DNA of 64,000 nucleotides, from positions 16,597 through 80,596 of the IMG/VR virus record IMGVR_UViG_2832949849_000001, one strand, 5' to 3'. The stretch is from a virus (Duplodnaviria > Caudoviricetes). Position numbers and translations under genes: made by a program. The notes beneath the pieces were generated by a model, which did no database searches, had not been told where the DNA came from, and saw only the letters and a program-made list of their open reading frames with translations. Positions within the stretch are counted from its first letter, which is position 1, and each line of letters begins with the position of its first letter. This document shows positions 18,937-40,892 of the stretch, one piece after another.

Positions 18937-19818
18937 ATGAACTTCATCGACTTATTCGCTGGTATTGGTGGCTTTCACCTTGCTCTATCCCGTCTTGATA
19001 TGAATTGTGTTTTTGCTTCTGAGATAGACTCTCATGCTCGAGAAGTTTATAAACTCAATCACAAGATTTCTGATGAGATTTTCAATGAGGACATACGCTC
19101 TATTAGTCCTGATGCCATTCCAGACCATGATATTTTATGTGGTGGATTTCCATGTCAGCCGTTTTCGCAAGCTGGGCACAAGCGCGGCTTTGATGATGTT
19201 CACAAATCAGAGCGTGGTAATTTATTTCATTACATAGCAGATATTATTAAAGAAAAACGTCCTAACGCGTTTATTTTAGAAAATGTACGTCATCTTCTTA
19301 AACATGATGAAGGCCGAACTTTCCAAACAATACGAGACATTCTTGAAAAAGAACTTAATTACACTGTTTATTTTAAAATCATCAAAGCTACTGATTTTGG
19401 CCGACCTCAACACCGACCTAGAATCTATATTGTTGGATTCAACAATCATACTGTAAACACAGTACCAAGTTTTGAATTCCCAAAACCAACTGGCACCACA
19501 ATGACTATGTCAGACGTATGGGAAGGAGATTGTTCTCGCGAAATTGGTTTTACATTGCGCGTAGGTGGCAAAGGCTCACCTCTAAACGATCGAAGAAACT
19601 GGGATGGCTATTTAGTTAATGGCCAAGAGGTACGATTATCTCCAAAAGAAGGAAAGCGCATGATGGGCTTTCCTGATGCATTTCAATTATCAAAATCAAA
19701 AACACAAGCCATGAAGCAATTGGGAAACAGTGTTTGTGTTGACGTAGTTTATCATGTAGGCCTCGCAGTAAAAGAATACCTTGAACAAAATCAGATATCT
19801 AAAAGTGAAAGTGACGGC
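18937..19818 (+). CDS. DNA cytosine-5 methyltransferase (in frame with the downstream nuclease)
   Basis: FIDLFAGIGG, GGFPCQPFS, LENV, PQHRPR and QLGNSV motifs. Confidence 0.93.
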
Positions 19819-20837
19819 ATGGCAAATTTCAACAAAGGGGAATGGGGAGAGCTGTATGCTTTTTTAAAAGCAATTCAAAATCCTCAAATAAAATTTGGTG
19901 ATACCAATACCAATATTTTAAACACAAACGACTTTATTACTGTTTTTTCATTGCAACATAATGACCAACCATATCAATACACCATACAAAATAATCAATT
20001 AATTATTTCAGAAAATGGCATATTAATATCAGAGCACAATATTGATGAAATATTAAACCAAGAACGCCTGAATCAGCTTAAAAATGACATTGTTAATTCA
20101 AAAGCAACTTTTGAAATACAAGATCAAAATATACTTGAAACACTCAAAATCAATTCATTTAAAGGCAGCTCTTTTCAAAAAAAGATGTGAGTGTGGGGTT
20201 TAACTATCAACATATGTGCATTGAAAATGACCCACTGGGAATTAAATCATTTTTAGGTAACAACCCTACCCTTTTAAATGCCTCATCCAATACAAACTTT
20301 ATTTTCGAAGTAAATGGGTTCCAAGGCAGAATTGATGATGTCAACTCAATCGATACCAAAAATAAAGTACGTGATCGCATTGCCTATATTTTAGAGCACG
20401 GCGGTAGTTTTACATTTGATAAATGTGAAAAACCAACCTTTGAAGAAAACCTTTTCAGAGTAGACAGCTGCATGCCTCAAATTTTAGGTAATTTACTGTT
20501 GCAGTACTACTCTGGTAGTGGCTCTGAAATCTCACAGTTGATTACTGATGACTCAGAAAAAATCAAAATAAAACGATTGTTAGAAGCCATGTTGCTTGGG
20601 ATGTTCCCAAGTAAACTGTGGGATGGCAATTACAGCTCAAATGGCATTATCGTAGTACGTAAATTAGGTGACTTACTGCTGTATCACACTTTAAAGCGTA
20701 ATATTTTAATGAACTACTTATTTGAAAATACAAAACTTGATACGCCATCTACTTCACGCCATGGTTTTGGTAAACTTATTGAAGAAAAGAACGGCTCAAA
20801 ATTTTTCAAACTGAATTTACAAATCCGAAATACTTAA
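19819..20837 (+). CDS. HpaII-family restriction endonuclease (frameshift near 20180)
   Basis: NKGEWGELY, IKSFLGNNPTLLNAS, LGMFPSKLWDG and TKLDTPSTSRHGFG motifs. Confidence 0.85.
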
Positions 20838-23755: not shown

Positions 23756-23780
23756 GTATGACGAATATTAAAAATATAGA

Positions 23781-23808
23781 AAAACGCCACCAAATTGGTG
23801 GCGTTTTT
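23781..23808. terminator. Bidirectional terminator (second copy at 24747-24770)
   Basis: AAAACGCCACCAAATTGGTGGCGTTTT. Confidence 0.7.
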
Positions 23809-24914
23809 TGTCTTTGAATTTACGCTGCTGCTTTTAAATTCTGATTAATGATAATCGTTACAATTTCATCACATTTTTTTTCAACTTGTAAAGATAAAGA
23901 CTCTAATTCATCTAATAATGAATTGATTTGATCATATGTATTTTGCATGTTAATACTCCTTAAGTTAGTTTAAAACTGCTGTTGCTCCAGCAATTTAAAT
24001 AATTTGTCACATTCATCTAAGTCATTATTCGACATTGCAACCATAATTGACTCAAGTTGCAACACAACCTGTTTTGAATTGATAAGCGCCTTTTCAATCT
24101 CATAACTTTGCTCATGAGAAACAAAACAGGAGTCAAATTAGATAGGCTATCAAGTCTAACTAACATTGTTTTAAGTATTACTATAATCTGATCAACACTA
24201 GGAGTTACACACCCATTAACTAAATTATAGTTATAACCATTATTATTAATGGCACCCAATACTTTTTGGGCACTAGAATATGTTTTTCCCAAACATTCTC
24301 TGCTACTTCTAAGACTCTTTTTGTTATTTTTTGGTTCTGTTGATTCATAATGTAGACCTAATTTTTTGAAAATTAGAATACCTAATAAAAATCAAAATGT
24401 TATCCAGAATATTGTACAGTTTGTTTATATTGCCTGCAATAACTATAAAATACAGCCAAATTATTATTTTAAATTTATTTAAGTAGCCCAATTAAATATG
24501 TTTAATAAAAATCACTTTAGTAAGTAAGAGATACAATATATCTGAAAGCTTATTATTATGATAATCGCATTATCATAAATTAGGTTTAATATTATAAACA
24601 TTGTTGTATTTAAGCAAATTGAGATTATTTTCAAGTAACTTGCTTTCATATCCCGTTCAACTAGACAATGTCAACAATGAGCATTTTTATTTCCAAGTAA
24701 TAATAAATATATTCAAATGTAATAACATACTAATGTTATTTATAAAAAAACGCCACCAAATCGGTGGCGTCTTTCATTCATCCTCAGTCCAAACTCTAAC
24801 CCAAATCCTCGCCTCCATATCCTCATCAAACATGGACCAATTAGTACCTTCATCATCAATGGTGAATTCAAGCGTGCCTGCAAACCAAGTTTCAGGGTAA
24901 AATCCTTGAAGCCT

Positions 24915-27900
24915 TCAGCAGCTGCAATCAATGCTGCAGGTGAATCTCCAACACTCACACCATCCCTCAACAAACTGCCCCACAAACCTTTCAAACCTTG
25001 CCTTAATTCGTGTCAAAGTGGATTCGCGTTCTAAAATTCTTGGCACAAAAGACAAGCTCTTGGCGATTTCATCATCACGCGGCATGGTATTGGTAAAAAT
25101 AAAGCTTTCGACCATTGTTTGGAAGCATTCATCTTTCAATTGCTCTTCTTCTACCAATCATGAATGGCTTGCTGTTTTTCTTGCTCCCAAAAGTCTGCAA
25201 AAGCTGTATCAAACGCCTCACTTGATTGAATGCCTGGCAACACTTCTTGCACAAATTTTTCAAGCAACGGCAACTTCACCCGCAATTTAGGTTCTTTAGA
25301 GGCAATGTCCAAAATGGCTTGAACTTTGCGCATAAAGGTTTCTTGTCCTGAAATCCAATCGCTATGGTCTTCATCGGCCACGCCTTTGAGTAGATTCAGA
25401 ATGTAGGCGACGTTGATGATGTCGGTATGGATCAACTCAGTTTCAAAATCCAACTCGTCCAGAACCGAAGTTTTGGCGGCTGGTGCGTCAGTAGGAATTT
25501 TCTTATGGCGTTTGACCTTGTCGTACAAGTCCAAGTATTTCGATTTGAAACCTTCAAATGTATTGTCGTCCATCGCCAAATCGTCTGTATTGAAGTCGGA
25601 GAACGATTTTAACGTTGTTTGCAAACGCAATAAGTCACGATAGGCTTTTACAAACTCAGCTTGTTCATTTTCATCAGCCAAAGCATCCACGCTTTGTACC
25701 GTCGGAGTAATACCCAATAAAGCATCCACAGCCTTGTGATATTTGGCCAAATACTCACTGTATGGCTGCAACAGCACTGTTTCATTAGCATTGGTATTGG
25801 CAAACAAGGTGACAGCCTCATCGGTCTTGTCTTTCAAATTGCGAAAACAAACGATGTTGCCATGGGTTTTGGAAGCATTGTAAATGCGATTGGTACGTGA
25901 AAAAGCTTGAATCAAACCGTGGTATTTCAGGTTTTTATCCACATACAAGGTGTTCAAAGTTTTGGCATCAAAACCGGTCAAGAACATGTTCACCACCAGC
26001 AAAATATCGATTTGCGCCTCTTGTGGCTGTTTGGCGTGTTTCTCAACTCGTTTGGTGATGTCTTGGTAGTAGTTGTAAAAGCTTGCAGTATCTTTCAAAC
26101 TGAACTGTGAACCGTATTGCTGATTGTAATTGGCAATGAAACGTTCCAAATGGTCACGACTGACTTGAGGCTGCTCACCATCATCACCCATGTCTTGCTG
26201 CCCATCTTTGTTCTCAGCTTCATTGGCGGCATAGCTGAAAATGGTCGCTACCTTCAACTTCCGATAATTAGGATTATTCGCCAAAGCTTCAGCTTGGACT
26301 TTCTCAAACAACTGGTAATACTTGATCAAAGCCTGCACACTGCTGACACAGAAAATGGCATTGAATTGATAACGGTTGGTTTTCTTTGGATGTGCATCCA
26401 CAATATAACGAACAATTTTCTCCAAACGGCGCTCGTCTTCCAAAGTCTCTTTACTGGCCGTGGTTTGAATATGGTCAGTTACATCTTCATCTTCGGGCTC
26501 TAAGTCTGAAACAATGTCCAATTCATTGTTAGAAACCCGCTCTTGGGCTTTTTCTTGGTATTTACCCACGTATTCAACCGAAAAACGCAACACATTGTCG
26601 TCACGAATGGCATCGGTAATCACGTATTTGTGCAAACACTCATTGAACAAGTCTTTGGTGGTCTGAGGGATGCCATTGGCTCGACTGACGTTCTCTTCTA
26701 AAATTGGCGTACCTGTGAAGCCAAACATCTGTACTTTGGTGAAAAACTTTTTGATATTCTGATGGGTTTGGCCAAACTGACTTCGATGGCATTCATCGAA
26801 AATGAACACCACTTTCTTATCTTGCAAATACGAAATCTGATTTAAATATTTTGGACTAGTCACCGCAATATTCAGCTTTTGCAAAGTGGTGACAATCAGC
26901 TTTTTCTTGCCGCCTTGCGCTTGGCTATCTGTAATTTGCTTAATCAACGACGACGTGTTGGTGGTCGTATCCACACAACCATCAGTATAATGATTGAATT
27001 CAATTGCTGTTTTGTAATCAAGGTCTTTGCGATCGACCACAAACATCACCAAATCCACTTCTGGCAAGGTCTGTATCACTTGGCTGACCTTAAACGAGGT
27101 TAAGGTTTTGCCTGAGCCTGTGGTATGCCAAATGTAAGCGTTTTGATTCGATAACTTGGCTCGCTCAATCAAGGCCTCCGCCGCATAAAACTGATACGGA
27201 CGAAACAGCATCAACACTTTGTCACCATGATTCAACACTGTGTAATGCGTGATCATCTTTGCCACATGGCAAGGGCGCAAAAAGTGATCAGAAAACTGGT
27301 GTAAGTCCGAATAAATATTATTGTCTTTGTCTGCCCAAGAGAAAGTAAAATCGAAGCTGGCTTGGTGGTTGTTGGCAAAATACTTGGTACTGGCACCATT
27401 GCTGATGACATAAATCTGCGTGTACAAGAACAAACCATGACCCACCCAATACGAATCACGGTGGTAACGGTCGATTTGATTGAACGCCTCTTTCAAATCC
27501 ACACCCAAACGCTTGAGCTCAATTTGCACCAAAGGCAAACCATTGATCAAAATCGTCACATCAAAACGGGTTTTATAGGTATTTTGTTGGGGATTGTGTA
27601 TTGTCACTTGTTGTGTGACTTGGAATTCGTTTTGACACCAATGTTCTTGGTTGATGAATTGAATGCTATGGGTATCACCATTGTCGCGTTGCAATTGGTA
27701 ACGACTGCGCAAAATCTGCGCCCGTTCAAACACCGTACTGCCTTGGCTCAAATAATTAAGCACCAAATGAAACTCTCGCTCGCTCAAAGGTGTGGTGAGT
27801 TCATTGAATACTTCCAATTGCCGTTTGAGATTGCGCAACATGGTCGCTTCATCAGGCAAAGCCACCAAGTCATAACCCAAACCACTTTTGCTATCACCCG

Positions 27901-27961
27901 TACCAGCCAATTGTACCAATAAGGCTTTTTCCAATTCGTATTCGCTTTGAACCAAACCCAC
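24915..27961 (-). CDS. hsdR: Type I restriction endonuclease subunit R (C-terminal frameshift near 25155; 3' end approximate)
   Basis: QIELK nuclease motif, WHTTGSGKT, DECHRSQFG, FGFTGTP, MFLTGFDA, QAFSRTNR. Confidence 0.95.
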
Positions 27962-28081
27962 TTCCCCTTATATTTTAAGCTTAATCTTTTTATTTAGATG
28001 ATACTGTCATCATTCACAGTATAAAACATGCTCAGAGGATTTTGTAAGCATCTGGGCATGTTTTGGTCGTTAACTTAAAAA

Positions 28082-29102
28082 TTAAGCTGCTCTAGCCGCT
28101 TCAACTTTCATCAAAATCCGCATTAATGTCACCACTTCATTACAGACTTCAGTTAAGTCAAAGTCTCCACCCTCCCAAGCGCATACCCAATAACGACCAT
28201 TAATTTCAGCCCAAGTATTGTCTCCATCATTAACTATCCAAGATAACTTCTTCAACTCTTTACAAGCCAATTTCACCAATGCGTCTGTTTGTTTATCAAT
28301 ACGAATTTGTAAACTATATTGCAAAGGTTTCTCATCGATATGTAAATTAACAACCACTTCAGTCCATGTTGGACAATGATTATTAGCAAAACGCAAAGCA
28401 GGACCATTTGGCCAAGTATGCACCCGATAATGAACTTCATAACCTTTTAATTGGTTTTCCAACGCCTCAGTAATGTGATCACGGACATGTCGATAAAAAT
28501 CATCACGCAACGTCACCATTTTCTTAATGTCACCCAAATGCTCAACCACAAAATCCACTTGCTGCTCATTCATCACATCCACCCCCAATTGTTCCAATGC
28601 ATTAAAAATTCCCGCGCAAACAAAGTCCATTTGTTATACGGCTGGTTTAACAAAGCCTCTGCCAACAACGGCCTAGTGTGCGTTGCCAATGTGCGATAAG
28701 ACAGCCCTGTCCAAGCTGCAGCATGGCTTTTTCCATCCACACACAAAATCAAAAACACCTGTTTTTGCCTGGATAATGTTGGCGAACATAGCGTTCATAA
28801 TCAGTAAACGGATTGTTTTGATGGTGACCAATTTTGCATTCAATCGCCAACACTGCCTGATCGGTTTCAATCAACAAATCAATGCGCCCCTTACTGGTCA
28901 CCACCTCGGTGTGTACGTTTTGCACATCGCCCCAAGCCTCGGTATCCGATTGTGCCACGCCACACTCACGCAAAGCCGCCAACAAGCCTTGGTAAAACAC
29001 CCCGTTTAATCCATGCTCATTTTCTGAATTTAAAAAAAACGCCAACAACTCTGTGGTCGGGTTTTCATAATGCTTGCGCAAAGCCGTATCAAAAAACGTC
29101 AT
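28082..29102 (-). CDS. PD-(D/E)XK nuclease family protein (frameshifted) between hsdS and hsdR
   Basis: ENPTTELLAFFLN...HGL and GRIDLLI...AIECKI...NNPF..Y motifs. Confidence 0.75.
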
Positions 29103-29324
29103 TTCTTTTTACTCGTGTGCAAAGACTTCGCTTGCTCCAACACGCTTTGCAAACGTGATAATTCATCTACAGCCACATCGATACTGTCCATACAGCTTGT
29201 CCCTTATTGGTTTTGAAATATTGTTTTATTTACAGGCCGCTTTAGTAAGCGTCCTGTAAGCTTTACAAGCGTCCTGTAAAAACAGCCAAAGCGCAGGGCT
29301 GCGGCTTTGGCTGTTTTTAAACGC

Positions 29325-30616
29325 TCACACAAACATCTGTTGCAACAAACCTTGCTTCCACACACGCGCTTGTTCCAATTGCTGCGCCAAAGCGTCGATT
29401 TTGGCATCAATGGATGAAAGGCAGGCGGCGATTTTGGTCTGCTCTGCAAGAGTTGGTATTTTTATTTCTACCTTGCCTAAATTAGTTTTAGATATACCCA
29501 ATACAGAAATACCTGTAGCCAATTTTTGAATTTGTGCACGAACTGCCAAAGTTTGCATTAAGTAACCATGAAATCCCAAAGCAAAGTCCTGTTTCGGTCT
29601 AGCAATATAAGTATGCAAACCTGCAACAAGTTTTTGATTGCCTAAATTCACTATTTCGATGGTTTTACCAATATCTTTATAATCTTCAGAAGCATCTGCA
29701 ATGACCAAATCACCAACTCTTAAAAACCGCTCTTCATCTAATTTGCTAATCTCAACCTCAGCACTTAGAAAAGGTACTTTTTCCTTAGTCGCATCAAACA
29801 AGCTAGAAAATTTTGTATGAATATCCCCATAATGAATATTCATAATTTCACCCTGTTCAGATAACAAAGCTCTCGAGTAAGAATTTGTCTGATGAAAAGT
29901 AAATTTTTCAGAAAATATTGTGGTTTTCCAATCAGGAAAATCCTGACCATTATCGTCCTGAAAGCGAAGCTTTGGCTGAACAATTGCTGCATCATGCCTT
30001 GCTTGTATTGCTGCCACAAATCATGTTCTTGGCGCAAAGCCGCGATTTTGTCATCCACCGCAGATAGAAAAGAAGCGATTTTGGTTTGTTCTTGTAGACA
30101 AGGTATATTTAACTCAACATTCCCTAAATTTCCTTTTGAAATACCTAAAACCGAAATCCCTGTTGCTAATTTTTGTATTTGCTCTCGAACCTTAAAAGTT
30201 TGCATCAAATAACTATTAAATCCCAAAGCACTAGGTGAATTTGGACGGGCAATATAAGTATGCAGCCCAGCTACAGCTTTTGGTTATTTAAGTTCACTAC
30301 TTCAATGGTTTTACCAATATCTTTATAATCTTCTGAAGCATCAGCAATGATTAAGTCTTTTACTTGTAAAAATTGGTTTGTAGCAATTTTTGTGTGTCCA
30401 CTTTACAGCTTAAGAAGGGCACGTCTTCCTTAGCTACATCAAACAAAGCAGAAAATTTCGTATGAATATCACCATAATGAATATTCATGATACTACCTTG
30501 CTCAGCCAATAACGCTCTTGAGTAAGAATTTGTATTATGAAAAGTAAATTTTCAGAAAATTTATGTACTTCCCAAGCGTCCTGAAACCCCTTAAACCTCA
30601 ACTTAGGCACATTCAT
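29325..30616 (-). CDS. hsdS: Type I R-M specificity subunit with two paralogous TRDs (frameshifted)
   Basis: VPKLRF, EQTKIA and KQG(M/L)(M/L)QQ conserved regions; start overlaps the hsdM stop. Confidence 0.88.
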
Positions 30617-32198
30617 TTGCTGCCCTCCGCAAACGGGTTTTCAATGCCCAATTCGCTGCAAAAATCGGTAATTTGTGCTTCTATCGCCACGCTGTCGGCT
30701 TTCACTTGGCGCAAAGCCGCTGCCACTGCGCTCAAATCAATCGCCGCTTCCGCTTCAAACGTATCCACATATCGGGGAATATTAAGGTTGTAATCATTGG
30801 CTTTAATAGACTCGATACTTGCCACAGATGCGTATTTGTCTTCGCTTTGGCGTGTGTTCAAAGCCGTTACAATGCGCTCGATGTGTTCGGGCAAGAGTTT
30901 GTTTTGGGTTTTGACTTTTTCAAAATCGTTGCTGGCATCAATGAACACAATATCATTCGGATTTTGACGGCATTTTTTCAACACCAAAATACAGGTTGGT
31001 ATGCTGGTGCCGTAGAATAAATTGGCAGGCAAGCCAATAATGGCATCAATCACATTCAATTGCTCAATTAAGTATTGGCGTATGTGCCCTTCTGCCGCGC
31101 CACGGAACAACACGCCATGCGGTAACACAATCGCCGCTGTACCCTCTTCTGACAATTGATAAACAATGTGCTGCACAAACGCCAAATCGGCTTTGGTTTT
31201 AGGCGCAAGCTTGCCGTATTGGCTGAAACGCTCATCGGTACTGGACAGCATCGGGTCAGCGCTCCAATGCGCTGAAAACGGCGGATTGGCGACAATGGCA
31301 TCAAAGCGCAAATCCAAGTGTTGCGGCTTTTTCAAGGTGTCATCTTGCTTGATTTCAAAATCGGCAAAATGCACGTCGTGTAGCAACATGTTCATGCGGG
31401 CCAAGTTGTAAGTGGTGCGGTTGAGTTCTTGACCGTAAATCTTGGAAATTTTGTTGGCTTCACGTTTCACACGCAACAACAACGAGCCCGAACCACAAGT
31501 TGGGTCGTACACATTGCGTAGCTCGGTATTGTTCACCGTTACCAAACGCGCCAACAAAGTCGATACTGGTTGCGGCGTGTAAAATTCGCCTGCTTTTTTG
31601 CCTGCACCTGAAGCAAACTCACCAATCAAGTATTCATATGCATCACCCAACACATCGCTATCAGTATTGGCCAAATCAAAATCAATCAAAGCCAAACGCT
31701 GAATGATTTGTACGATGGTCTCATTGCGATCGTCGGCTGTTTTGCCCAATTTGGTTGAGGTCAAATCCAAATCATCAAACAAATGACTGAAATCGTCAGC
31801 TGAATCCGTACCTAAAGTCGATTGCTCAATGTTGCGCAACACTTGTTGCAAGTCATCCAAAATATAACCTGCGCCACTGCTGTCTTGTTTAGAACGTTCG
31901 GCAATGCTTTGGAACAATTCCGCAGGCGTTAAGAAGTAGCCCAACTCTTTGACGATGCTGTTTTTAACGGCACTGATATAAGCGTTGTAATGTTCATCAC
32001 TTGGCTTGAGTTGGTCGTAAATCAAGTTGTCTGATACCAATATCTTATTGGCATAAGCAACCATTTTTTCAGACAGGTATTTGTAGAAATAAAGCCCAAG
32101 ATGTAATCACGGAATTCATCGGCATTCATTTTGCCGCGCAAAGCATCGGCAATGCTCCACAATTGGCGTTGCAGTTGGCGTAGTTGTTCTTCTGACAT
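30613..32198 (-). CDS. hsdM: Type I R-M methyltransferase subunit (frameshift near 32090)
   Basis: LWSIADALRG, GEFYTP, YDPTCGSGSLL, ANPPFS and VLPHGVLFRG motifs. Confidence 0.95.
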
Positions 32199-32424
32199 GT
32201 TTGGTATCTTTATATTGAGTCAGGCTTGACCTGAATGGGTTATTCGATTTTGGCTGATTATAGCCCAAGGTTTGTTTAGGTGGCGTGAGGTATGAATACT
32301 ATTTCAACTTTATGCAATCATACCAATAGCATTAAAAACGTTACTTATTTGATTTGTTTTGATTCATAAAAAGCGTCCTGTAACCCTACAGGACGCCACC
32401 ATTTCATCTATTCAAACCAAAGCA

Positions 32425-33255
32425 TTACTTATAAATTCCCACCGCTTTACGCCAATCTTTTTGGCTCTCGTAATCAGCAGCCCAAGGATAATCACGCATC
32501 GTCGTGTGATTCAACGCCACCATATCATGTTTTCTGCCAAAGTTTTGCGTATGGATCCATACAACTTTGAAATGTTCGCTCACTGAGCTGACCATTTTAG
32601 GATTGATGACGCTCAAAGCCATTTTGTAATGGTTGAACCAACAGAAAATCCAATCCATGCTTTGGGCGGCATTGACCAAGTTTTTGACTTGATGTTCTTC
32701 TAAAACGTATCCACTTGGCTTTTCAGTGGTGAGCAACAAGCGGTGCAAGTATTCAGTAGCCTCGCCAACTTGTTCCAAAGTCAACTCATCAATACTGGAT
32801 ACATTGAAACGCTGATGCACTAATTTGTAAGCATCAGGATACAACAAACCTTTTTTACTGACCACGGCATTGACCGCATCACGCAAACCTGTGCGTTCGT
32901 CTGTGGTGGTTGAGCGTCCTGTAAACTTCTGTGCTTCGGTTTCGATTAAATCCAACACCCATTTGCGGAATTGTTTGGCAATTTCAGTTTTGGCAAACAT
33001 TGCAACCAAATGACAACCTCGCAAACTGAAAATTCTCACAGGCATCATAATATTACCCGTTTTCCTAATGACACTCATTTGAGGGTCATTGACATACTGC
33101 TTGAAATTCATCTTCATTGCGATTAAAATTTGCGTAACTGCATCGGCTTTTTTATAGCCTAATGCATTAGCCAATTCAGTAGCAGTAATCCAAATTTGAT
33201 TGTCAGGTTGCGAAACAGGATTCAAAGAAACTTGATTGAAAGTCAGTGCGTTCAT
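32425..33255 (-). CDS. Bro-N / P22 Ant-like antirepressor
   Basis: IWITATELANALGY, RIFSLRGCHLVAMFAKT, FRKWVLDL and LVHQRFNV motifs. Confidence 0.85.
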   Translation of the reverse strand: MNALTFNQVSLNPVSQPDNQIWITATELANALGYKKADAVTQILIAMKMNFKQYVNDPQMSVIRKTGNIMMPVRIFSLRGCHLVAMFAKTEIAKQFRKWVLDLIETEAQKFTGRSTTTDERTGLRDAVNAVVSKKGLLYPDAYKLVHQRFNVSSIDELTLEQVGEATEYLHRLLLTTEKPSGYVLEEHQVKNLVNAAQSMDWIFCWFNHYKMALSVINPKMVSSVSEHFKVVWIHTQNFGRKHDMVALNHTTMRDYPWAADYESQKDWRKAVGIYK

Positions 33256-33300
33256 GATGAACACTCCTTTGTAATTTTCGAAATTTAAAAGCCCAATTGG

Positions 33301-33384
33301 GCGGTCAAGAGGTTCGAAAGCCTTACAAAGACGGCTGGAGTTATTTCCCTTACGGGTATTGTATTCCTCACCCTCTCGACCATG
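33301..33384 (-). ncRNA. C4-like antisense RNA upstream of the antirepressor
   Basis: Closing stem GGTCGAGAGG/CCTCTTGACC; the segment CTTTGTAA...TTTCGA is complementary to sites at 33467-33485 and 33267-33282, the latter abutting the RBS. Confidence 0.75.
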
Positions 33385-33890
33385 ATTTTGACGCACTACT
33401 GCCTAAACAATAGATACACGAATTCTATGGACGAAAAATATCACTCAATGACGGCAGTGATGACCGCTTTGTAAAAAGGTTTCGACACCTTGAGCGCATC
33501 ATAAAACAAAAAACCACCTGTGCAAGGTGGTTTGGGTTGATAACATCCATTAAATAGGAGGCAAATTATAGTGGCTCACCTTTTTGAATGATTGAGTACT
33601 TTTAAAGACTTTTGCCATTCGAGGTATTCGCTTTGAATCTTTGGCTTTTTAAATTTATCATTTAAAGTTACCAAATCATGGCTATCATAGCCGAGGTTTT
33701 GTTGAGCATATAATGTAAAGCTTTTAATTGACAACATGGATGTTCCCTATGAGTTGATATGGTCAGCAGACAGCACAAATCAAAATTTCGCTTCAGTTGG
33801 CTTTTAGAATCATTGTGCTAATAAATAACCCGTCTATGAAGACGGGTTGATGAACACCAATTTACTTCACTACATTTAAATTAAATGTAA

Positions 33891-34106
33891 TTAAGCAATG
33901 GCTTGAATATTAGTGGCTTGAGGGCCTTTAGGTCCAGACTCACTGTTAAAGCTTACTCGTTGATTTTCAGCTAAGGTACGAAAGCCTTCGCTTGTAATAG
34001 CTGAAAAGTGTGCAAATAACTCAGCACCTCCGTTATCAGGTGTGATGAAACCAAAGCCTTTAGAATCGTTGAACCATTTTACTGTACCAGTTTGTTGAGT
34101 CGACAT
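33891..34106 (-). CDS. cspA: Cold-shock protein (moron)
   Basis: [23 protein letters not shown] and KGPQA motifs; own terminator at about 33827-33848. Confidence 0.93.
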
Positions 34107-34517: not shown

Positions 34518-34838
34518 TAATATCCGACTCTCAGCAATATAATTTTCTATCACCTTTTCATCCCAAAAGATTGAAATTGACATTTCACCCTATCTAATTA
34601 AAATCCCAATAGATTCTTGCTCCCAACATACGCTGGCGAAGAGGAGGTTTATGTTGCGTAGGTATGAGTTTTCATCTGGCACTCTCATATTCACCAAGAA
34701 TCCCCATTTTCTTTTAAACAGTCGCGCCCATGATGCAACGTGTCAGTGTAGATGCATCATGCGTAGGAATGAGCATCCCATATCTGTACTCATCTCCATC
34801 GACTGTTTCTCAATACCACATGAAGTGAGATTTTGACA

Positions 34839-35228
34839 CTTCTAAGCGGCCTGTATGGCCGTGAACAACATCTGGGCAAAAGTAAAAACTGGCGAAACTT
34901 TCTAAGCGGCCTGTATGGCCGTGAACACAAAAGAATTGGAAACTTTGGGCATGACTGCTTTCTAAGCGGCCTGTATGGCCGTGAACACGGAAACCATTTC
35001 TAAAGCGGGTGTCATGTCGTTTCTAAGCGGCCTGTATGGCCGTGAACCCTTGGTTTCGATTGCGCCAACTCCAATCACCTTTCTAAGCGGCCTGTATGGC
35101 CGTGAACACACATAGAGTCTGGCAAGATTTACAGTGTTGATTTCTAAGCGGCCTGTATGGCCGTGAACAATTGCGCCAAGACACGGCGATTAGAGCGCAT
35201 TTTCTAAGCGGCCTGTATGGCCGTGAAC
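34839..35228 (-). CRISPR. Type I-F CRISPR array: 7 repeats (GTTCACGGCCATACAGGCCGCTTAGAAA) and 6 spacers of 32-33 nt
   Basis: 28-bp repeats at 34839 (1 mismatch, trailer), 34899, 34959, 35020, 35080, 35141 and 35201; CGGCC-ATACA-GGCCG hairpin. Confidence 0.97.
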
Positions 35229-35365
35229 AGTAAAAATAATCTACAAAAACAAGATACCACAATGGTTTGAAGCCTAAAACCTGTTAAATACCCAAATTTC
35301 AAGCTTCAAACATAAGTGATTGATTTTAATTATTTATTAAAGAGCGCATAAATATTGGGTTAAAA
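35229..35365 (-). promoter_or_regulatory. Type I-F CRISPR leader with IHF-like site
   Basis: AT-rich; the minus strand has AACCCAATATTT, AATCAATCACTTA (matches WATCAANNNNTTR) and AAATTTGGGTATTT. Confidence 0.75.
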
Positions 35366-35402
35366 TTGATATGACGCCACCTACGCCACCGATTATAAAA
35401 TT

Positions 35403-37684
35403 TTAATGGACACAATCAAACAATGAATCCATCAAAGCTTTGTTTGCAGTAGCTGTTTCCAATACCTTCTTCTCCCGAATGACTTTAAACAAACCATCGA
35501 AAGCGTCATTGATGCGTTGGCGCTCTTCACCTTGTGGATAAGCGCGCTCACCGACTCGACCATTGCCACCTTGGGTTGAATAAGCCAAATAATCATTCTT
35601 GCGCCCTTGCTCTTCCAAACGATCCTGTAAATATGCTGAAAACGCACGCGCTGCCATTTCAAAGTCTTTGGACCAATACTTGCCTTCTTTGCCCATGTCC
35701 AATTCAATAGCGTTTTTATAGAACTCACTTTGTCCTGGTAAGCCATCAAACGTTAAAACACCATCTGCACTGATATCGACATCGCTCTCACTGCCCAAAG
35801 TCCAGTGACGCACTAACAAGGTGTAAGCCACATTCGAGCGAAGCTCTTGGGTTTGGGCGGTGTGGTGGCGTAATTGGCATGGCTTGCAATCCACTTTTTT
35901 AGGTCACTCATAGCGGCATTGAGTGGCAAACGGCTGCCTCTCAAGAAATTACCCGCCATGCTTTCAAGGAAGGCTTTGGTGTCTGCACTTGGCTGATGAA
36001 CATCAGGAATGAATGCTTTAGGATATTCAAACTTCAACACCCCATCGGTCTTCATCATGGCCACACGCAATGCTTTGAACACCTGAGCCAAATCCACATC
36101 AGGTAAATCATCAGGATTGCTGGTACCCATGAAACTGGCACTGCCAACGGTTTGTGTGGACAAATCTTTAATCAGGTTATCCAATGCATGGAAATATTCA
36201 TGGCCAAGACTCCCACCGCCTTTCATTTTGGTGATGTTGATGACCTTACTGGATGACTCATAATGCGCTAATGCGCCTTTCTTACCGCGTGCACCAAACG
36301 CCAATGCCAAATTGCCCTTCAGCCCCAAATATTGTGGTTCAATGCCCAAAACATCCGACATGTCTAACATCGCAGCAGCGGCATTTTTCATGTGAAATTC
36401 AGCGGCAGACTTGTCTTTCAAAACCCAATTGCCTGATTGAATGCCTTTGAAACCAAACATGTCTTGCAACTGCTGCGAAGAGGTTAAATCCACCTCTTGC
36501 CCACCAATACGTTCAATGTCTTCTGCAGACTCCAATTGAAACGATGGCTTTTTGGGTTTAGAAGCACCTTCAGGAGCAGCATTGCCTTCACCATCAGTAC
36601 CAGTTTTAAAATCTGCACACCAATTAGACCAATCGGCGTATTTTTTATCGCGTTGGGCATTGCGCAAAGTAGTGTTGACCGATTTACTGGTCCAACTAAA
36701 AAAACGCTCGCCCAATTCAGCCCAAACTTGGCTGTCGTAGGACAACAACTTCTCTCGCCCACGGACACTAATTTGTTTGAAGTTGTTATCAATATTTTCT
36801 TCAAAAGTAATGCCTGCAGTCAGCTCATCTTCGTACAACATGCGCATCAACTTGATGCTAGGCATGGCCACAATGATTTCATTCATCACTGCAGCCACAT
36901 CTTTGAAGGTCAAACACACCTCCAAACGCTCACGCAAATTGGAAATGGCTTGTACGTAGTTCTTTTGACTGTGCTGACTCAATGGATGTAATGGCATTTT
37001 GTCCATATTGGCATACACCCGGCTGATGAAATACGCCACCTGTGAAGGCATACCTTTGTCCGCCAATGCCGCCCAATCTACCCGTCCAAATACGTTGTCT
37101 TTGACTATCAATGATTCAGACAAACGTGGGTCTTTGGCCAGCTCATCCCAATCGATGTCATTACTGTTCAACCTTTGCCCATCACGCTTGGCCTGTAAGA
37201 TAGATTTTTGAGCCAATTCTTTGCGTGCACCGGCAATGTAAGCGGTATCTTTCCAACGATAATTTTCAGCTGTGGTGGTATCTGATAAATCATCATCGAT
37301 GTTTGCTGCAGCAGCCAAATCATCTTCATCCAAACCCACCTCATCTTCGCTTGGTGGCAATTGATTATCTGTATCTTCTGCAGTCATGGGGGCCTCAGGC
37401 TGTTGTGAAACAGCCTCATTGCTTTCGGACTCTGCCTCAGTTTGCATTTGGTCAGACTCTTTTGGCTCTGCTGCAGGTTCAGGTTCTACCAATGGCTCTG
37501 GTTCCGCCGCGGGTTCAGATTCTGTCGCCGTCACAGCCAATCCAAGCTGCAAACGCAAATCCTGCACCACCTTAATCCAATCCAATTTCTTCAATACATC
37601 GGCTTCGGCATTGCGTGCTTCAATTGCTGTTTTAAGCTCACCATTTAAGCGCAAGCGTTCCATCGTATTCAATTCCATGCTCAT
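35403..37684 (-). CDS. DdrB-like polyvalent protein with zincin-like HEYFH and LPD1 domain (frameshift near 35850)
   Basis: LALAFGARG, GGGSLGHEYFHALD, EMAARAFSAYLQD and YPQGEER..INDAFD motifs. Confidence 0.8.
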
Positions 37685-37689
37685 CCCCT

Positions 37690-40407
37690 TTATTGGCTTA
37701 ATTCGTCTAATTTGGCGGTATAAGCATTGACCGCTTGTTCTACCATGGCTTGCATTTCAGTATTGTCGCCACCGTTGTAACGCAAGGCGACTGCAGTCAT
37801 GCGTTCATGAAAACCTTCACCCATCACATCAACCAAACCCTCAATGACCTCTTTTAAAAATGCTCGATCCGCATCATGACCAGACTCATCGGTTTCTTCA
37901 GGCTCAAATTCAGGCTCAAACGTATCTTCTAACTCAACCCATTCGCCATTTTCATTTTGTACTTTTACAAATAGATTCAACAAACTACTCTCATTCTGTT
38001 GACTGACATCATCAAAAGTGGCAGTATTAATCAAGCTTGAAACCCCAGCTTTGGTAGTTGGGAAAGGTTCGGGCTGTAAAGCGGCACTATCTAGTGTCGC
38101 TTTTACTTTGTTAGGCAACATCAAATCATAGTGCAGGTATCCTTGAATATCCCGTTCTATCATCACTACAACCTGATGTAACATCCCATCCACAGCAATA
38201 GTATTTTCAAGTTTGTAATATTCAAACGTACCTGGTTTAGCAGCTAATTTAAAATTCGGCTCTACCACTGCATTTCGCGCTGTTTCAATAATTTCTTCGA
38301 TTTTGGCGGCCAGTAAGATTTTTACAGGATTGCCTGTATATCGGATGAACTCCTTCACGCTGCGATTACGAATTTCTACTTTACGCACATCACCATTTTC
38401 ATCTCGCGGCATAGCAGGACAATCCACCCATTTACCACGCAATGATTCCAAATGTGTACGAGCAGCCGCACGCATGGCTTTCTTGCCTTCATCGGTGCTT
38501 AAATCAAAATCACCCAATTCATTTCCTACAAATTGGACGGGTTCCAACTGTGAATTTAAAACTGGCTCCGGTTCTAAAGCCGGCTCTGGCTGCGAATTAA
38601 CAACATCCTCCAGATTGGCTACATGCTCACCATTACTATCAATCACGCTCACAATCTCAATATTCCATCCAGAATCATTGACAGCACTATCAAACGCAGC
38701 TACATTTGAATTCATAGGAGTCTGCCCAAGCAGTGACCGACCAACAAGATTGTTGCCCAAAGCATCAAGAACTGAATTGTTGGAGCCAGTATCAAGCTTG
38801 GGTTCGGCTCCTTTTAATTTATTGTGATATGCCAAGAATTCAAATTTTGCGTTTTCACGCTCAGCCACCGTAACGATATGCGTAACTGTGTAGCTTCCAA
38901 TCACAGCCTCACCCTTAAAGCGGTGAAAAGCCACAAAGCTGTCTTTTCGGTCCTTTTTAACTCCCTCACGTCCCAAGTAATCGCCATTTTTTAAGGTGTT
39001 TGGTACGAACGGAATAATCGCTGCTCTAAAGCGATCTTTATCTGTACCCAATCGCATCTCACGCGTAGCAACTGAAGTAAACAATACATCACCAATCACT
39101 GTTTTAACGTATCGGCCTTGAAAGTTTTCACGCATATAACGCTGAACGGCATCATACAAATCAGCTTCACCGGCATTCATGAATGCGTGAATATCTGTAT
39201 TAAGCAAATCAATGTTCATTTCAGATGGCTCTACGCCATTTGGCACTTGTTGCGGTTTCGGCTCTACAACAACCACGCTAGAACCATTTTCCAATGCCGC
39301 GATTTGGTCCAACAAGCTCTGTAAAACATTCTTCTTCTGCTCAATACGCTCTTCCGTGGCTTTGATTTCAGCTTCATTCTCAGCCGCTTTGGCATTGGCT
39401 CGCGCAAACTTGGTGGCGTTGGCTTCAACCAAGGCCATAATCTTTTTGGCAATGGCTGCAATGGATTGGTCTTGGCCATTCTCTTTGGCCACCACGATGG
39501 TGATGTCTTTCTTGTTGAGCATCCACTTCCAAGACACCATTGAATCATCAGGTGATAGCTTATTGGGTGTTACATCAGGATTGTGAAAGAACACCGATAC
39601 TGTTTGGCCATCGCTCATGCTGAACAACATGGCAATGTTGGTGGTGCCACCTTGGCGGTATGGCTCAGTGACTTCAACGCCACCTTCTTCCACCACCTTA
39701 ATGTCATCACCTGCAGCACGATTCAAAGCCATGCCGATTTGGGCGGCTTTCTTTTGGATTTGGTTATTAGGTATTACCAAGGCATCCAACACACCCAACT
39801 CGCCACCATCTTGGTGTTCAATTTGGTCTAATAAATCACGGTGGTTATTGGCTTCAATCAATTGGCCATAAGCACTGTCCATGACACGCATGTCGTATAA
39901 AACACGGCTGGCAGCCGCGGTAGGTTGATCCCAATCATATTCAGGAATTTGTTGCATGGCTGTCTCGCTGTAAGAGTCGAAAGGGAGGGATTGGGCACTC
40001 ATGGCCTCTTTGTGATTACCGTACTCTAGCCACCATTTGAATTGACCGACGGTACACGCCACCACACTCATGGGCTTCTTGCCAAAGCAGCCAAGGCTGT
40101 ACACATTGATGGCATGGTCTTGGTCTAGAAAACCAAACATGACTTTGTGTTCATCAAAACCCACACCTTGTTTGTCTTGGTTAATCACATACACAGTATT
40201 GGTTTCAGGATAAGGCCCAACGTAACAATCAATTGGGTCTTGGTCTGCCCCTTTGGTACCAACCAATTCGCCGTAATCATCTGAAACTAAAATAGGTGGG
40301 CGGCCTGATTTGATGCGATAACTGCCTGCTACGGATTCAATATGCACTGGCAAGCCATAAACCGATGTAACACGCCCGTTTTCATTGCGGGTGACGTTGC
40401 CCATCAC
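37690..40407 (-). CDS. DarA-like polyvalent protein (InPase-like + DarA N + two LPD3-like + DarA C)
   Basis: GADQDPIDCYVG...FDEHKVMFGF; SDGQTVSVFFHNPD...WKWMLNKKDIT; C-terminal DRAFL...QAVNAY. Confidence 0.8.
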   Translation of the reverse strand: MMGNVTRNENGRVTSVYGLPVHIESVAGSYRIKSGRPPILVSDDYGELVGTKGADQDPIDCYVGPYPETNTVYVINQDKQGVGFDEHKVMFGFLDQDHAINVYSLGCFGKKPMSVVACTVGQFKWWLEYGNHKEAMSAQSLPFDSYSETAMQQIPEYDWDQPTAAASRVLYDMRVMDSAYGQLIEANNHRDLLDQIEHQDGGELGVLDALVIPNNQIQKKAAQIGMALNRAAGDDIKVVEEGGVEVTEPYRQGGTTNIAMLFSMSDGQTVSVFFHNPDVTPNKLSPDDSMVSWKWMLNKKDITIVVAKENGQDQSIAAIAKKIMALVEANATKFARANAKAAENEAEIKATEERIEQKKNVLQSLLDQIAALENGSSVVVVEPKPQQVPNGVEPSEMNIDLLNTDIHAFMNAGEADLYDAVQRYMRENFQGRYVKTVIGDVLFTSVATREMRLGTDKDRFRAAIIPFVPNTLKNGDYLGREGVKKDRKDSFVAFHRFKGEAVIGSYTVTHIVTVAERENAKFEFLAYHNKLKGAEPKLDTGSNNSVLDALGNNLVGRSLLGQTPMNSNVAAFDSAVNDSGWNIEIVSVIDSNGEHVANLEDVVNSQPEPALEPEPVLNSQLEPVQFVGNELGDFDLSTDEGKKAMRAAARTHLESLRGKWVDCPAMPRDENGDVRKVEIRNRSVKEFIRYTGNPVKILLAAKIEEIIETARNAVVEPNFKLAAKPGTFEYYKLENTIAVDGMLHQVVVMIERDIQGYLHYDLMLPNKVKATLDSAALQPEPFPTTKAGVSSLINTATFDDVSQQNESSLLNLFVKVQNENGEWVELEDTFEPEFEPEETDESGHDADRAFLKEVIEGLVDVMGEGFHERMTAVALRYNGGDNTEMQAMVEQAVNAYTAKLDELSQ

Positions 40408-40892
40408 ACACCACCTTGCAGCGCGGCTAGGGTTGCCTGTGCTTCGGCAATCAAGCCATCCAACTCAGCCTCTTGCGACTCTAATGCGGCTTTACGGGTG
40501 ACACGCGTATTACCCGACCCTTTAGGTGGCGTGGCTTTTTTGCGCGCCAAAGCCTTTTGAAATTTGGTTGCGTTGGCATCCAAGTCATTGACGATTTCAG
40601 CCAAAGCTTTTTTGATGTCGTCTTGCTCTTTCATCGGCAAAATTTTGCCATTCATACGCACCTGGTAGATGTCACCGGTTTGCTTCACACGCAAGACGAT
40701 GGTTTGAGAGTCTGCCAAAGTAAAACCAATTTCACGGTAAGTGATGCTGTTCTCACGTTTGGTCTTTTCAGCCACCCAAGATGCGGCAATTTCAGCCCCT
40801 GCTCGCTTAAAAGCGGTGACCAGCTTTTTGGGTGCTGTTGTATCGTTTCCCTTGAGTTCATCCCAAGTAAACAAATGATTGGTATCTGCCAT
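40404..40892 (-). CDS. Hdf-like protein (DarA N-terminal domain homologue)
   Basis: DSQTIVLRVKQTGDIYQVRMNGKILP motif; directly upstream of the darA-like gene. Confidence 0.78.
   Translation of the reverse strand: MADTNHLFTWDELKGNDTTAPKKLVTAFKRAGAEIAASWVAEKTKRENSITYREIGFTLADSQTIVLRVKQTGDIYQVRMNGKILPMKEQDDIKKALAEIVNDLDANATKFQKALARKKATPPKGSGNTRVTRKAALESQEAELDGLIAEAQATLAALQGGV

Follow-up and report, generated by a model that had tools for sequence, protein, structure and literature searches.

Can a CRISPR array carried in a phage genome, with no cas genes beside it, serve as an immune memory, and if so, whose enzymes would read it and whose interest would it serve? The locus considered here raises this question. 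The window, that is, the whole 64-kb stretch of DNA that was analysed, is part of an 80.6-kb IMG/VR provirus record with a CheckV completeness of 66%, and repeat finding together with a mismatch-tolerant pattern search of the record delimited in it a regular CRISPR array at 34839-35228 on the minus strand, composed of seven repeats of 28 nt, spaced 60-61 nt apart, and six spacers. The reversed pattern, searched over the record as a control, gave 0 matches. A preliminary description of this DNA had read the locus as an orphan type I-F array that borrows the machinery of its host. Its parts, from the leader side to the trailer side, are:

35368-35419, minus strand: junction between the upstream gene and the putatively captured leader, described from consensus scans only
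35313-35325, minus strand: IHF consensus, matched by AATCAATCACTTA, -97 to -85 relative to repeat 1; the host leader has its counterpart AATCAAAAAGTTA at -96 to -84
35229-35367, minus strand: leader of 139 nt, with homology to the leader that adjoins cas6f in the host I-F locus
35201-35228, minus strand: repeat 1, leader-proximal, identical to the cas-linked repeat of Vitreoscilla stercoraria DSM 513
35169-35200, minus strand: spacer W1
35141-35168, minus strand: repeat 2
35108-35140, minus strand: spacer W2
35080-35107, minus strand: repeat 3
35048-35079, minus strand: spacer W3
35020-35047, minus strand: repeat 4
34987-35019, minus strand: spacer W4
34959-34986, minus strand: repeat 5
34927-34958, minus strand: spacer W5
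34899-34926, minus strand: repeat 6
34867-34898, minus strand: spacer W6
34839-34866, minus strand: repeat 7, terminal, with the last A changed to G; the same variant closes the array of the DSM 513 prophage
34575-34838, minus strand: trailer, conserved with the DSM 513 prophage (247 of 265 columns identical, 93%)

Six of the seven repeats are exact copies of the unit that reads GTTCACGGCCATACAGGCCGCTTAGAAA on the minus strand and the terminal copy carries a single mismatch, which agrees with the earlier account of seven I-F-type repeats with degeneracy confined to the trailer copy. Against the Rfam model CRISPR-DR4, six copies scored 37.5 bits with a gathering score of 35 and the terminal copy fell just under it (34 bits); no more degenerate repeats were detected in the trailer. 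Because the transcribed strand is the minus strand, the leader lies on the high-coordinate (right) side of the array and the variant repeat marks its trailer end. The spacers W1 to W6 measure 32, 33, 32, 33, 32, and 32 nt and are all distinct, as had been reported (six unique spacers of 32-33 nt). A 10-nt string, TTGGCGCAAT, is common to W1 (35169-35200) and W3 (35048-35079) with differing flanks, and may be due to chance or to a repeated motif in the target. Fold prediction of the repeat as RNA gave a 5-bp stem and a 5-nt loop followed by an 8-nt 3' tail, CUUAGAAA (-9.3 kcal/mol, z -3.26), and a hairpin of 5-bp stem and 5-nt loop with an 8-nt 3' handle is the shape of a Cas6f substrate. Taken together, the array appears to carry the features of type I-F, namely this repeat shape, spacers of about 32 nt and a repeat that is served by an I-F cas operon in DSM 513.

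On sequence grounds, the array belongs to a prophage of P1-like myovirus type in a Vitreoscilla bacterium, with phage genes flanking it on both sides for tens of kb. The features of the window that define this setting are:

8-20 kb of the window: baseplate, tail sheath, PmgG-like head protein, and DNA methyltransferase
25151-34106, minus strand: accessory block downstream of the array
25151-27961, minus strand: hsdR of a type I R-M system
29325-30017, minus strand: hsdS of the same system
30613-32064, minus strand: hsdM of the same system
32425-33396, minus strand: Bro-N anti-repressor
33891-34106, minus strand: cold-shock protein
35403-37684, minus strand: last gene of the anti-restriction operon; its product is a polyvalent-type protein in which an LPD1 domain and an LPD5-like region occur
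37690-40407, minus strand: DarA_N/LPD3/InPase anti-restriction gene, 905 aa, co-oriented with the array
40404-40892, minus strand: Hdf-like gene, co-oriented with the array
50-57 kb of the window: CI-like repressor and RecT

The stop codon of the LPD1 gene is 174 nt from repeat 1 and the array follows downstream on the same strand, so that its placement directly after, and co-oriented with, the neighbouring gene of the prophage stands as first described. The label given to that gene, "ddrB-like", had to be narrowed. Since the protein encoded next to the array showed no similarity to P1 DdrB (BLASTP best E 2.3), the label is true of its position in an hdf-darA operon only; the 905-aa DarA_N protein likewise showed no similarity to P1 DdrB. 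In phage P1, the gene order is hdf-darA-ddrA-ddrB behind the late promoter LPdar. The LPD1 gene is split in the window (overlapping ORFs of 623 and 163 aa; 35813-35894) and is a single 760-aa ORF in DSM 513; its two halves match consecutive parts of phrog_29900, and the split may be a frameshift or a sequencing error. At the junction between this gene and the leader, a promoter-like site (35419-35392, 10/12) and a weak terminator-like hairpin (35389-35371) were found, in numbers near shuffle expectation, i.e., at chance level.

The accessory block has peculiarities of its own. A split gene for a PDC-S26-like PD-(D/E)XK nuclease (28082-29102; ORFs of 117 and 182 aa) lies between hsdS and hsdR, and the hsdS product (29325-30017; 230 aa) is about half size and matches one half of most specificity-subunit models. 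The defence cassette beside the array appears to be swappable (window 23759-32334 compared with DSM 513 G001:C15:32103-38214), since at the place of the type I R-M system DSM 513 has a Schlafen-type helicase (AbiO/PDC-S41-like), a MazG-like protein and a STAND NTPase with NB-ARC and TPR. Additionally, the Rfam family sRNA-Xcc1 scored above its gathering score of 53 in the window (33296-33380, minus strand) and in the DSM 513 prophage (L014 11052-11138, plus strand), with 68.5 and 61.7 bits; in each prophage the match covers part of the Bro-N anti-repressor ORF, at its 5' end, and may represent either an RNA gene or a conserved stretch with a coding or regulatory role. Besides the type I system, the window holds an opposite-strand orphan methylase amid the tail genes (18937-20837, plus strand), consisting of a 417-aa DNA methyltransferase (phrog_116) and the 216-aa ORF that follows it.

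The six Cas proteins of DSM 513, compared by tblastn with the 80.6-kb record (66% complete), gave a best E of 0.19 and none is encoded there, and HMM searches of the record for Csy4, Cas1f, Csy3, and Cas3f returned 0 hits each, which extends the reported absence of cas/csy genes from the window to the whole record. The exact repeat (28 of 28 nt) was found in one genome of a 185,579-species collection, that of V. stercoraria DSM 513, where it occurs at two loci, and its occurrences in the viral and metagenome contig collections were 0 and 0. On scaffold 24 of this strain, an 81-repeat array comes directly after cas1, cas2/3, csy1, csy2, csy3, and cas6f, and the I-F operon is complete, with all six NCBIfam equivalogs above the curated cut-off. 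The expectation that an I-F cas operon with the same repeat exists in the host was thus borne out in DSM 513, the window record being the provirus alone. Spacer length in the window (32 nt in four, 33 nt in two) is in keeping with the host array, in which 77 of the 79 readable spacers have 32 nt and 2 have 33 nt. The host array itself (G001:C24; L016 13426-13532) has a scaffold gap of Ns with duplicated flanking spacers (for example, V24_71-73 equal V24_76-78), probably an assembly artefact.

The relationship between the phage array and the cas-linked locus is not restricted to the repeat. The leader reaches 73.6% A+T over the last 140 nt, compared with 57% across the window, and shares 77% identity over 139 nt with the cas6f-adjacent leader of DSM 513 (G001:C24:8578-8715), the homology between phage and host stopping at the cas6f stop codon. 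A single exact match to the IHF consensus WATCAANNNNTTR is present in the leader. This consensus is frequent in the window (15 matches vs. 6.5 expected), so that the leader match alone means little, and its weight therefore comes from the fact that the host leader keeps it at the same position. With this qualification, the AT-rich leader with an IHF-consensus site of the preliminary description was recovered. According to the accessible text of a preprint on the I-F integration complex, about 150 bp of leader are folded in it with two IHF dimers, and inverted-repeat motifs of the leader are described as well (10.1101/2023.05.26.542337); the putatively captured leader is about as long. The trailers of the phage and the host array showed no homology to each other.

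The second locus of DSM 513, on scaffold 15, is a 12-repeat array with 11 spacers in a prophage that is collinear with nearly the whole window (79-99% identity by block). This array occupies the same insertion site, with flanks 93-99% identical to those of the window, 11 of its 12 repeats are perfect, its terminal repeat shows the same A-to-G variant, and its leader differs from that of the window at 2 of 220 aligned columns. Because the insertion site, the leader, the trailer and the terminal-repeat variant are common to both prophage arrays, a single ancestral capture is suggested. Spacer variation between orthologous prophages, which the preliminary description had thought possible, is complete at this shared site: none of the six window spacers occurs among the 11 of the DSM 513 prophage or the 79 readable spacers of the host array. 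Moreover, within the DSM 513 cell no prophage spacer (0 of 11) recurs unchanged among the 79 readable host spacers, and simple swapping from the host array is therefore not seen. One pair of spacers is related, the prophage spacer V15_5 and the host spacer V24_6, which occupy the same register and are told apart by changes at positions 2, 11, and 20, every one of them synonymous in a single frame (peptide KNVPIAFLVT). Such a pair would fit a history in which one protein-coding gene was sampled twice and independently, from two of its alleles and with the same PAM as anchor. The complete non-overlap, including the trailer-end spacers, could reflect recombination with other arrays and not stepwise acquisition at the leader end.

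Distant relatives of this phage in another host, a 96-kb IMG/VR provirus (G177/L029) and the G175 prophage, with 62-72% protein identity to the window phage, keep the Hdf-DarA operon and do not have the array, and the I-F repeat of G175 itself has a different sequence. The array is therefore best seen as a lineage-specific gain that matches its particular host. Sampled words of the window were recovered at 97% in one sequencing run, which may be the source run, and at 26-37% in five others; none of the runs listed was of RNA. In four of these five, from four studies (X3-X6), contigs join repeat 1 to the phage leader and the upstream gene (X3, X4, and X6) and the terminal repeat to the phage trailer (X3 and X6), and a short contig of X5 extends into the terminal repeat. 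X3 and X4 each have a further contig that departs from the leader at 35367, and its continuation in X3 corresponds, by eye, to the reverse complement of the 3' end of DSM 513 cas6f. Prophage-type and cas-linked loci therefore appear to co-occur in other samples, as judged by the cas6f-type continuation of the leader in two runs. Contigs of X3-X6 break at the repeats and none crosses the spacers of the window, and hence they are uninformative on spacer presence or absence.

The spacers of the window found no match in their own record at up to 7 mismatches, in line with the earlier inspection by eye, and only chance-level matches among 50,697 phage records. Two candidates were rejected there: W5 against the portal gene of a Paraglaciecola virus (E 1, an indel needed and the 5' end unmatched) and W4 against Escherichia phages of the NJ01 group, where the matched stretch comprised 19 spacer nt and 4 repeat nt (E 5). 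Among 72,556 plasmids, the hits were to the repeats of I-F arrays, in Legionella, Acinetobacter, and E. coli, apart from one 21-nt chance match. In 176 genomes of the host's family, repeats were found and otherwise matches of 22 nt or less, and because only three candidates were scored in the genomes with I-F arrays, matches could be hidden there. Sites for W1 in three family genomes, with 8-9 mismatches and no CC, were also discarded. The DSM 513 prophage, L029, and the other compared loci held no match at up to 6 mismatches, nor did the related 96-kb provirus G177; a peptide-level search of all spacers against the compared phage DNA gave one 8/10 chance match, and a site for the orthologous spacer V15_3 in G024 was rejected at 9 mismatches. 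Cultured phages of the Vitreoscilla host are essentially absent from the collections searched.

For one spacer of the orthologous array, a plausible protospacer was found. V15_5 agrees at 29 of 32 nt with the 3' end of a gene of Salmonella Jersey-like siphoviruses, the one for the major capsid protein (best E 0.02), and the 133 Salmonella-phage records with such matches were counted as one phage family. In phage Jersey, the site is in the same frame as V15_5 (KHVPIAFLVT, 9 of 10 residues) and is immediately preceded by CC, the PAM of type I-F. The E value of 0.02 is a limit of the match taken by itself, and the Jersey site is a homologue and not the true target of V15_5; that target would presumably lie in a Vitreoscilla phage that has yet to be sampled and whose capsid gene is homologous. 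The match supports an anti-phage use of the orthologous DSM 513 array. The anticipated phage protospacers with a CC PAM were thus obtained in part, with a capsid homologue preceded by 5'-CC for one spacer of the orthologue and none for the six spacers of the window.

What, then, could such an array do? We consider it probable that it is a working, trans-dependent I-F array, in which the Cas6f, Csy, and Cas2/3 proteins of the host use its crRNAs against other phages and the host Cas1-Cas2/3 with IHF have renewed its spacers. This reading starts from direct observations, namely the array anatomy, the absence of cas genes, the prophage context, the repeat identity and leader homology with the host, the complete spacer difference between near-identical prophages and one capsid target for the orthologous array, and from them we infer transcription, processing, interference, and the route of spacer change. 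The temperate P1-like Vitreoscilla myovirus would have captured a leader-plus-repeat module from the type I-F locus of its host and placed it at the 3' end of its Hdf/DarA anti-restriction operon. Host Cas6f would cut the pre-crRNA at the conserved hairpin, and the crRNA, loaded into the host Csy complex, would destroy together with Cas2/3 any DNA that carries a matching protospacer beside a CC PAM, so that the lysogen would be closed to other phages. Through the host-like leader of 139 nt and its IHF site, host Cas1-Cas2/3 may be able to write new spacers into the phage array, and the phage would thereby carry an updatable immune memory from host to host. The borrowing of host I-F machinery, already proposed in the preliminary description, gains support from the DSM 513 operon, the orthologous array, and the V15_5 capsid homologue with its CC.

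A bolder version of this reading is possible and we put it forward tentatively: the phage genome would be a mobile, continuously rewritten I-F memory, with Cas1-Cas2/3 and IHF integrating at the leader-proximal repeat of the prophage, crRNAs perhaps made in lytic growth against co-infecting phages, and the array forming one slot of a cassette-swapped island of defence and counter-defence. Because the spacers would integrate in the prophage's own array, immunity gained in one cell would travel with the virion to any Vitreoscilla host whose I-F system is compatible. Likewise, crRNAs may also arise during lytic growth since the array ends a Dar-type operon, which is late in P1.

The array could instead be an inert passenger, the product of one illegitimate capture from the host CRISPR locus that is neither selected nor used and whose spacers changed by recombination between identical phage and chromosomal repeats, and we regard this as rather unlikely. 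This prophage copy shows decay, in that the LPD1 and PDC-S26 genes are both split, hsdS has half its usual size and CheckV completeness is 66%, so that the array could be a passenger here, and that no target was found for its six spacers in the collections searched is consistent with disuse. The identity of phage and host repeats would permit array-array recombination, and the accessible text of a survey of mobile elements reports no sign of enrichment of prophages with CRISPR components (PMC7145637). Neglect would not be expected, however, to leave 6 of 7 repeats perfect here and 11 of 12 in DSM 513 and a leader kept at two differences. Exchange with the chromosome is also at odds with the 11 spacers of the DSM 513 prophage, none of which is identical to the 79 readable host spacers of the same cell, and with the sole related pair, whose three synonymous changes fit two acquisitions from two alleles.

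Counter-defence is a different matter, and very unlikely in our view. The array would then be a decoy in the manner of RNA anti-CRISPRs, its transcribed host-type repeats soaking up Cas6f and Csy or diluting host crRNAs and so weakening I-F immunity, for which its co-oriented position 174 nt downstream of an anti-restriction operon whose P1 counterpart has a late promoter, and the identity of its repeat hairpin to that of the host, would be suitable. Yet a decoy has no need for unique spacers of ruler length, for a 139-nt host-like adaptation leader, or for complete spacer replacement between near-identical phages, and for one spacer of the orthologous array (V15_5) a phage target beside a CC PAM is plausible. 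The RNA anti-CRISPRs published so far consist for the most part of single repeats or of altered ones.

It is highly improbable that the array is a tool against elements borne by the host, with spacers aimed at satellites, defence islands, or plasmids in the manner of ICP1 and with borrowed host Cas proteins. Its location between anti-restriction genes and a swappable defence cassette, and the precedent of ICP1 as cited in PMC7145637, would suit such a role, but no match was found in the 176 family genomes (three candidates scored in genomes with I-F arrays) or the plasmids, and the sole target homologue is a phage capsid gene. Finally, that the array is not phage-borne at all, because the provirus call took in host chromosome by mistake or because of a misassembly, is barely credible: the record is a predicted provirus of 66% estimated completeness and an identical repeat does exist at a chromosomal locus, but phage genes extend on both sides for tens of kb, and the gene-leader-repeat and repeat-trailer junctions recur in the independent DSM 513 assembly and in contigs of four other runs.

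If the array works in trans with host proteins, as we consider probable, the locus is of interest beyond this phage. Phage arrays without cas genes are rare, and those described are mostly mini-arrays of one or two spacers, as far as the accessible text of two papers goes (PMC7145637; PMC7099407). The cultured type strain DSM 513, with a complete I-F system and a near-identical prophage that carries a different spacer set, forms a natural pair for experiments, and makes it possible to ask whether a phage-borne array receives new spacers from the adaptation enzymes of its host, and whether the memory serves the phage or the host. Besides, the CRISPR array can be seen as a component of a prophage island in which anti-restriction genes stand side by side with exchangeable defence cassettes. 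Among the matches listed for published literature on Vitreoscilla and CRISPR, this locus was absent.

Among known systems, prophages of Clostridioides difficile carry multi-spacer, cas-less type I-B arrays that use the host system. The Vitreoscilla array is alike in being multi-spacer and cas-less; the subtype, the host phylum, and the phage type differ. Phage ICP1 of Vibrio cholerae carries its own cas genes, whereas the Vitreoscilla phage has none according to the tblastn and HMM searches. Both phages carry an I-F array that takes part, or would take part, in conflict between mobile elements, as ICP1 is cited to do in the available text of PMC7145637. The same text reports 212 CRISPRs in 26,987 prophages and 21 in 2,498 phages, notes that isolated CRISPRs of plasmids often match the Cas type of the chromosome, and proposes co-option of host Cas proteins by mobile elements (PMC7145637). 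The accessible part of that survey offers no locus-level evidence, whereas leader homology, an orthologous prophage, and a shared protospacer are documented for the Vitreoscilla lineage. RNA anti-CRISPRs and solitary repeat units differ in lacking normal spacers and an adaptation leader, both of which are present in the Vitreoscilla array.

The nearest relatives in form are the cas-less mini-arrays of viruses (Faure et al., 2019; Medvedeva et al., 2019), for which the accessible text describes repeats identical to those of the host, one or two spacers against closely related viruses, and a proposed use in heterotypic superinfection exclusion by means of host Cas proteins (PMC7099407). Like them, the Vitreoscilla array lies in a viral genome without cas genes (in a 66%-complete record) and its repeat equals that of the DSM 513 host at 28 of 28 nt. 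Unlike them, it has six spacers (11 in the orthologue) in place of one or two, together with a full host-type leader, and the two prophage arrays show a complete spacer difference between near-identical prophages. The spacers of the mini-arrays target related viruses; none of the six window spacers matched the record, the DSM 513 prophage, or G177, and the sole target homologue, that of V15_5, is the capsid gene of an unrelated siphovirus family.

With respect to activity, the closest parallel is described in the available portion of a 2026 preprint, in which an isolated, laterally transferred I-F array with a leader like the cas-adjacent one is active in trans in interference and primed adaptation (PMC13142298). 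This array, CRISPR3 of Pseudomonas aeruginosa ATCC 10145, resembles the Vitreoscilla array in being a cas-distant I-F array with a cas-adjacent-like leader and a link to mobile elements, and differs from it, as far as that text goes, in being chromosomal and in having a leader about 98% identical to its counterpart, whereas the Vitreoscilla array is internal to a phage and its leader is 77% identical (PMC13142298). Overall, virus-borne arrays without cas genes and isolated I-F arrays acting in trans are already in print in the accessible texts of these sources (PMC7099407; PMC13142298; PMC7145637), and what is distinctive of the Vitreoscilla array is that it is larger than the mini-arrays described, has a complete leader, and comes with a cultured strain for comparison.
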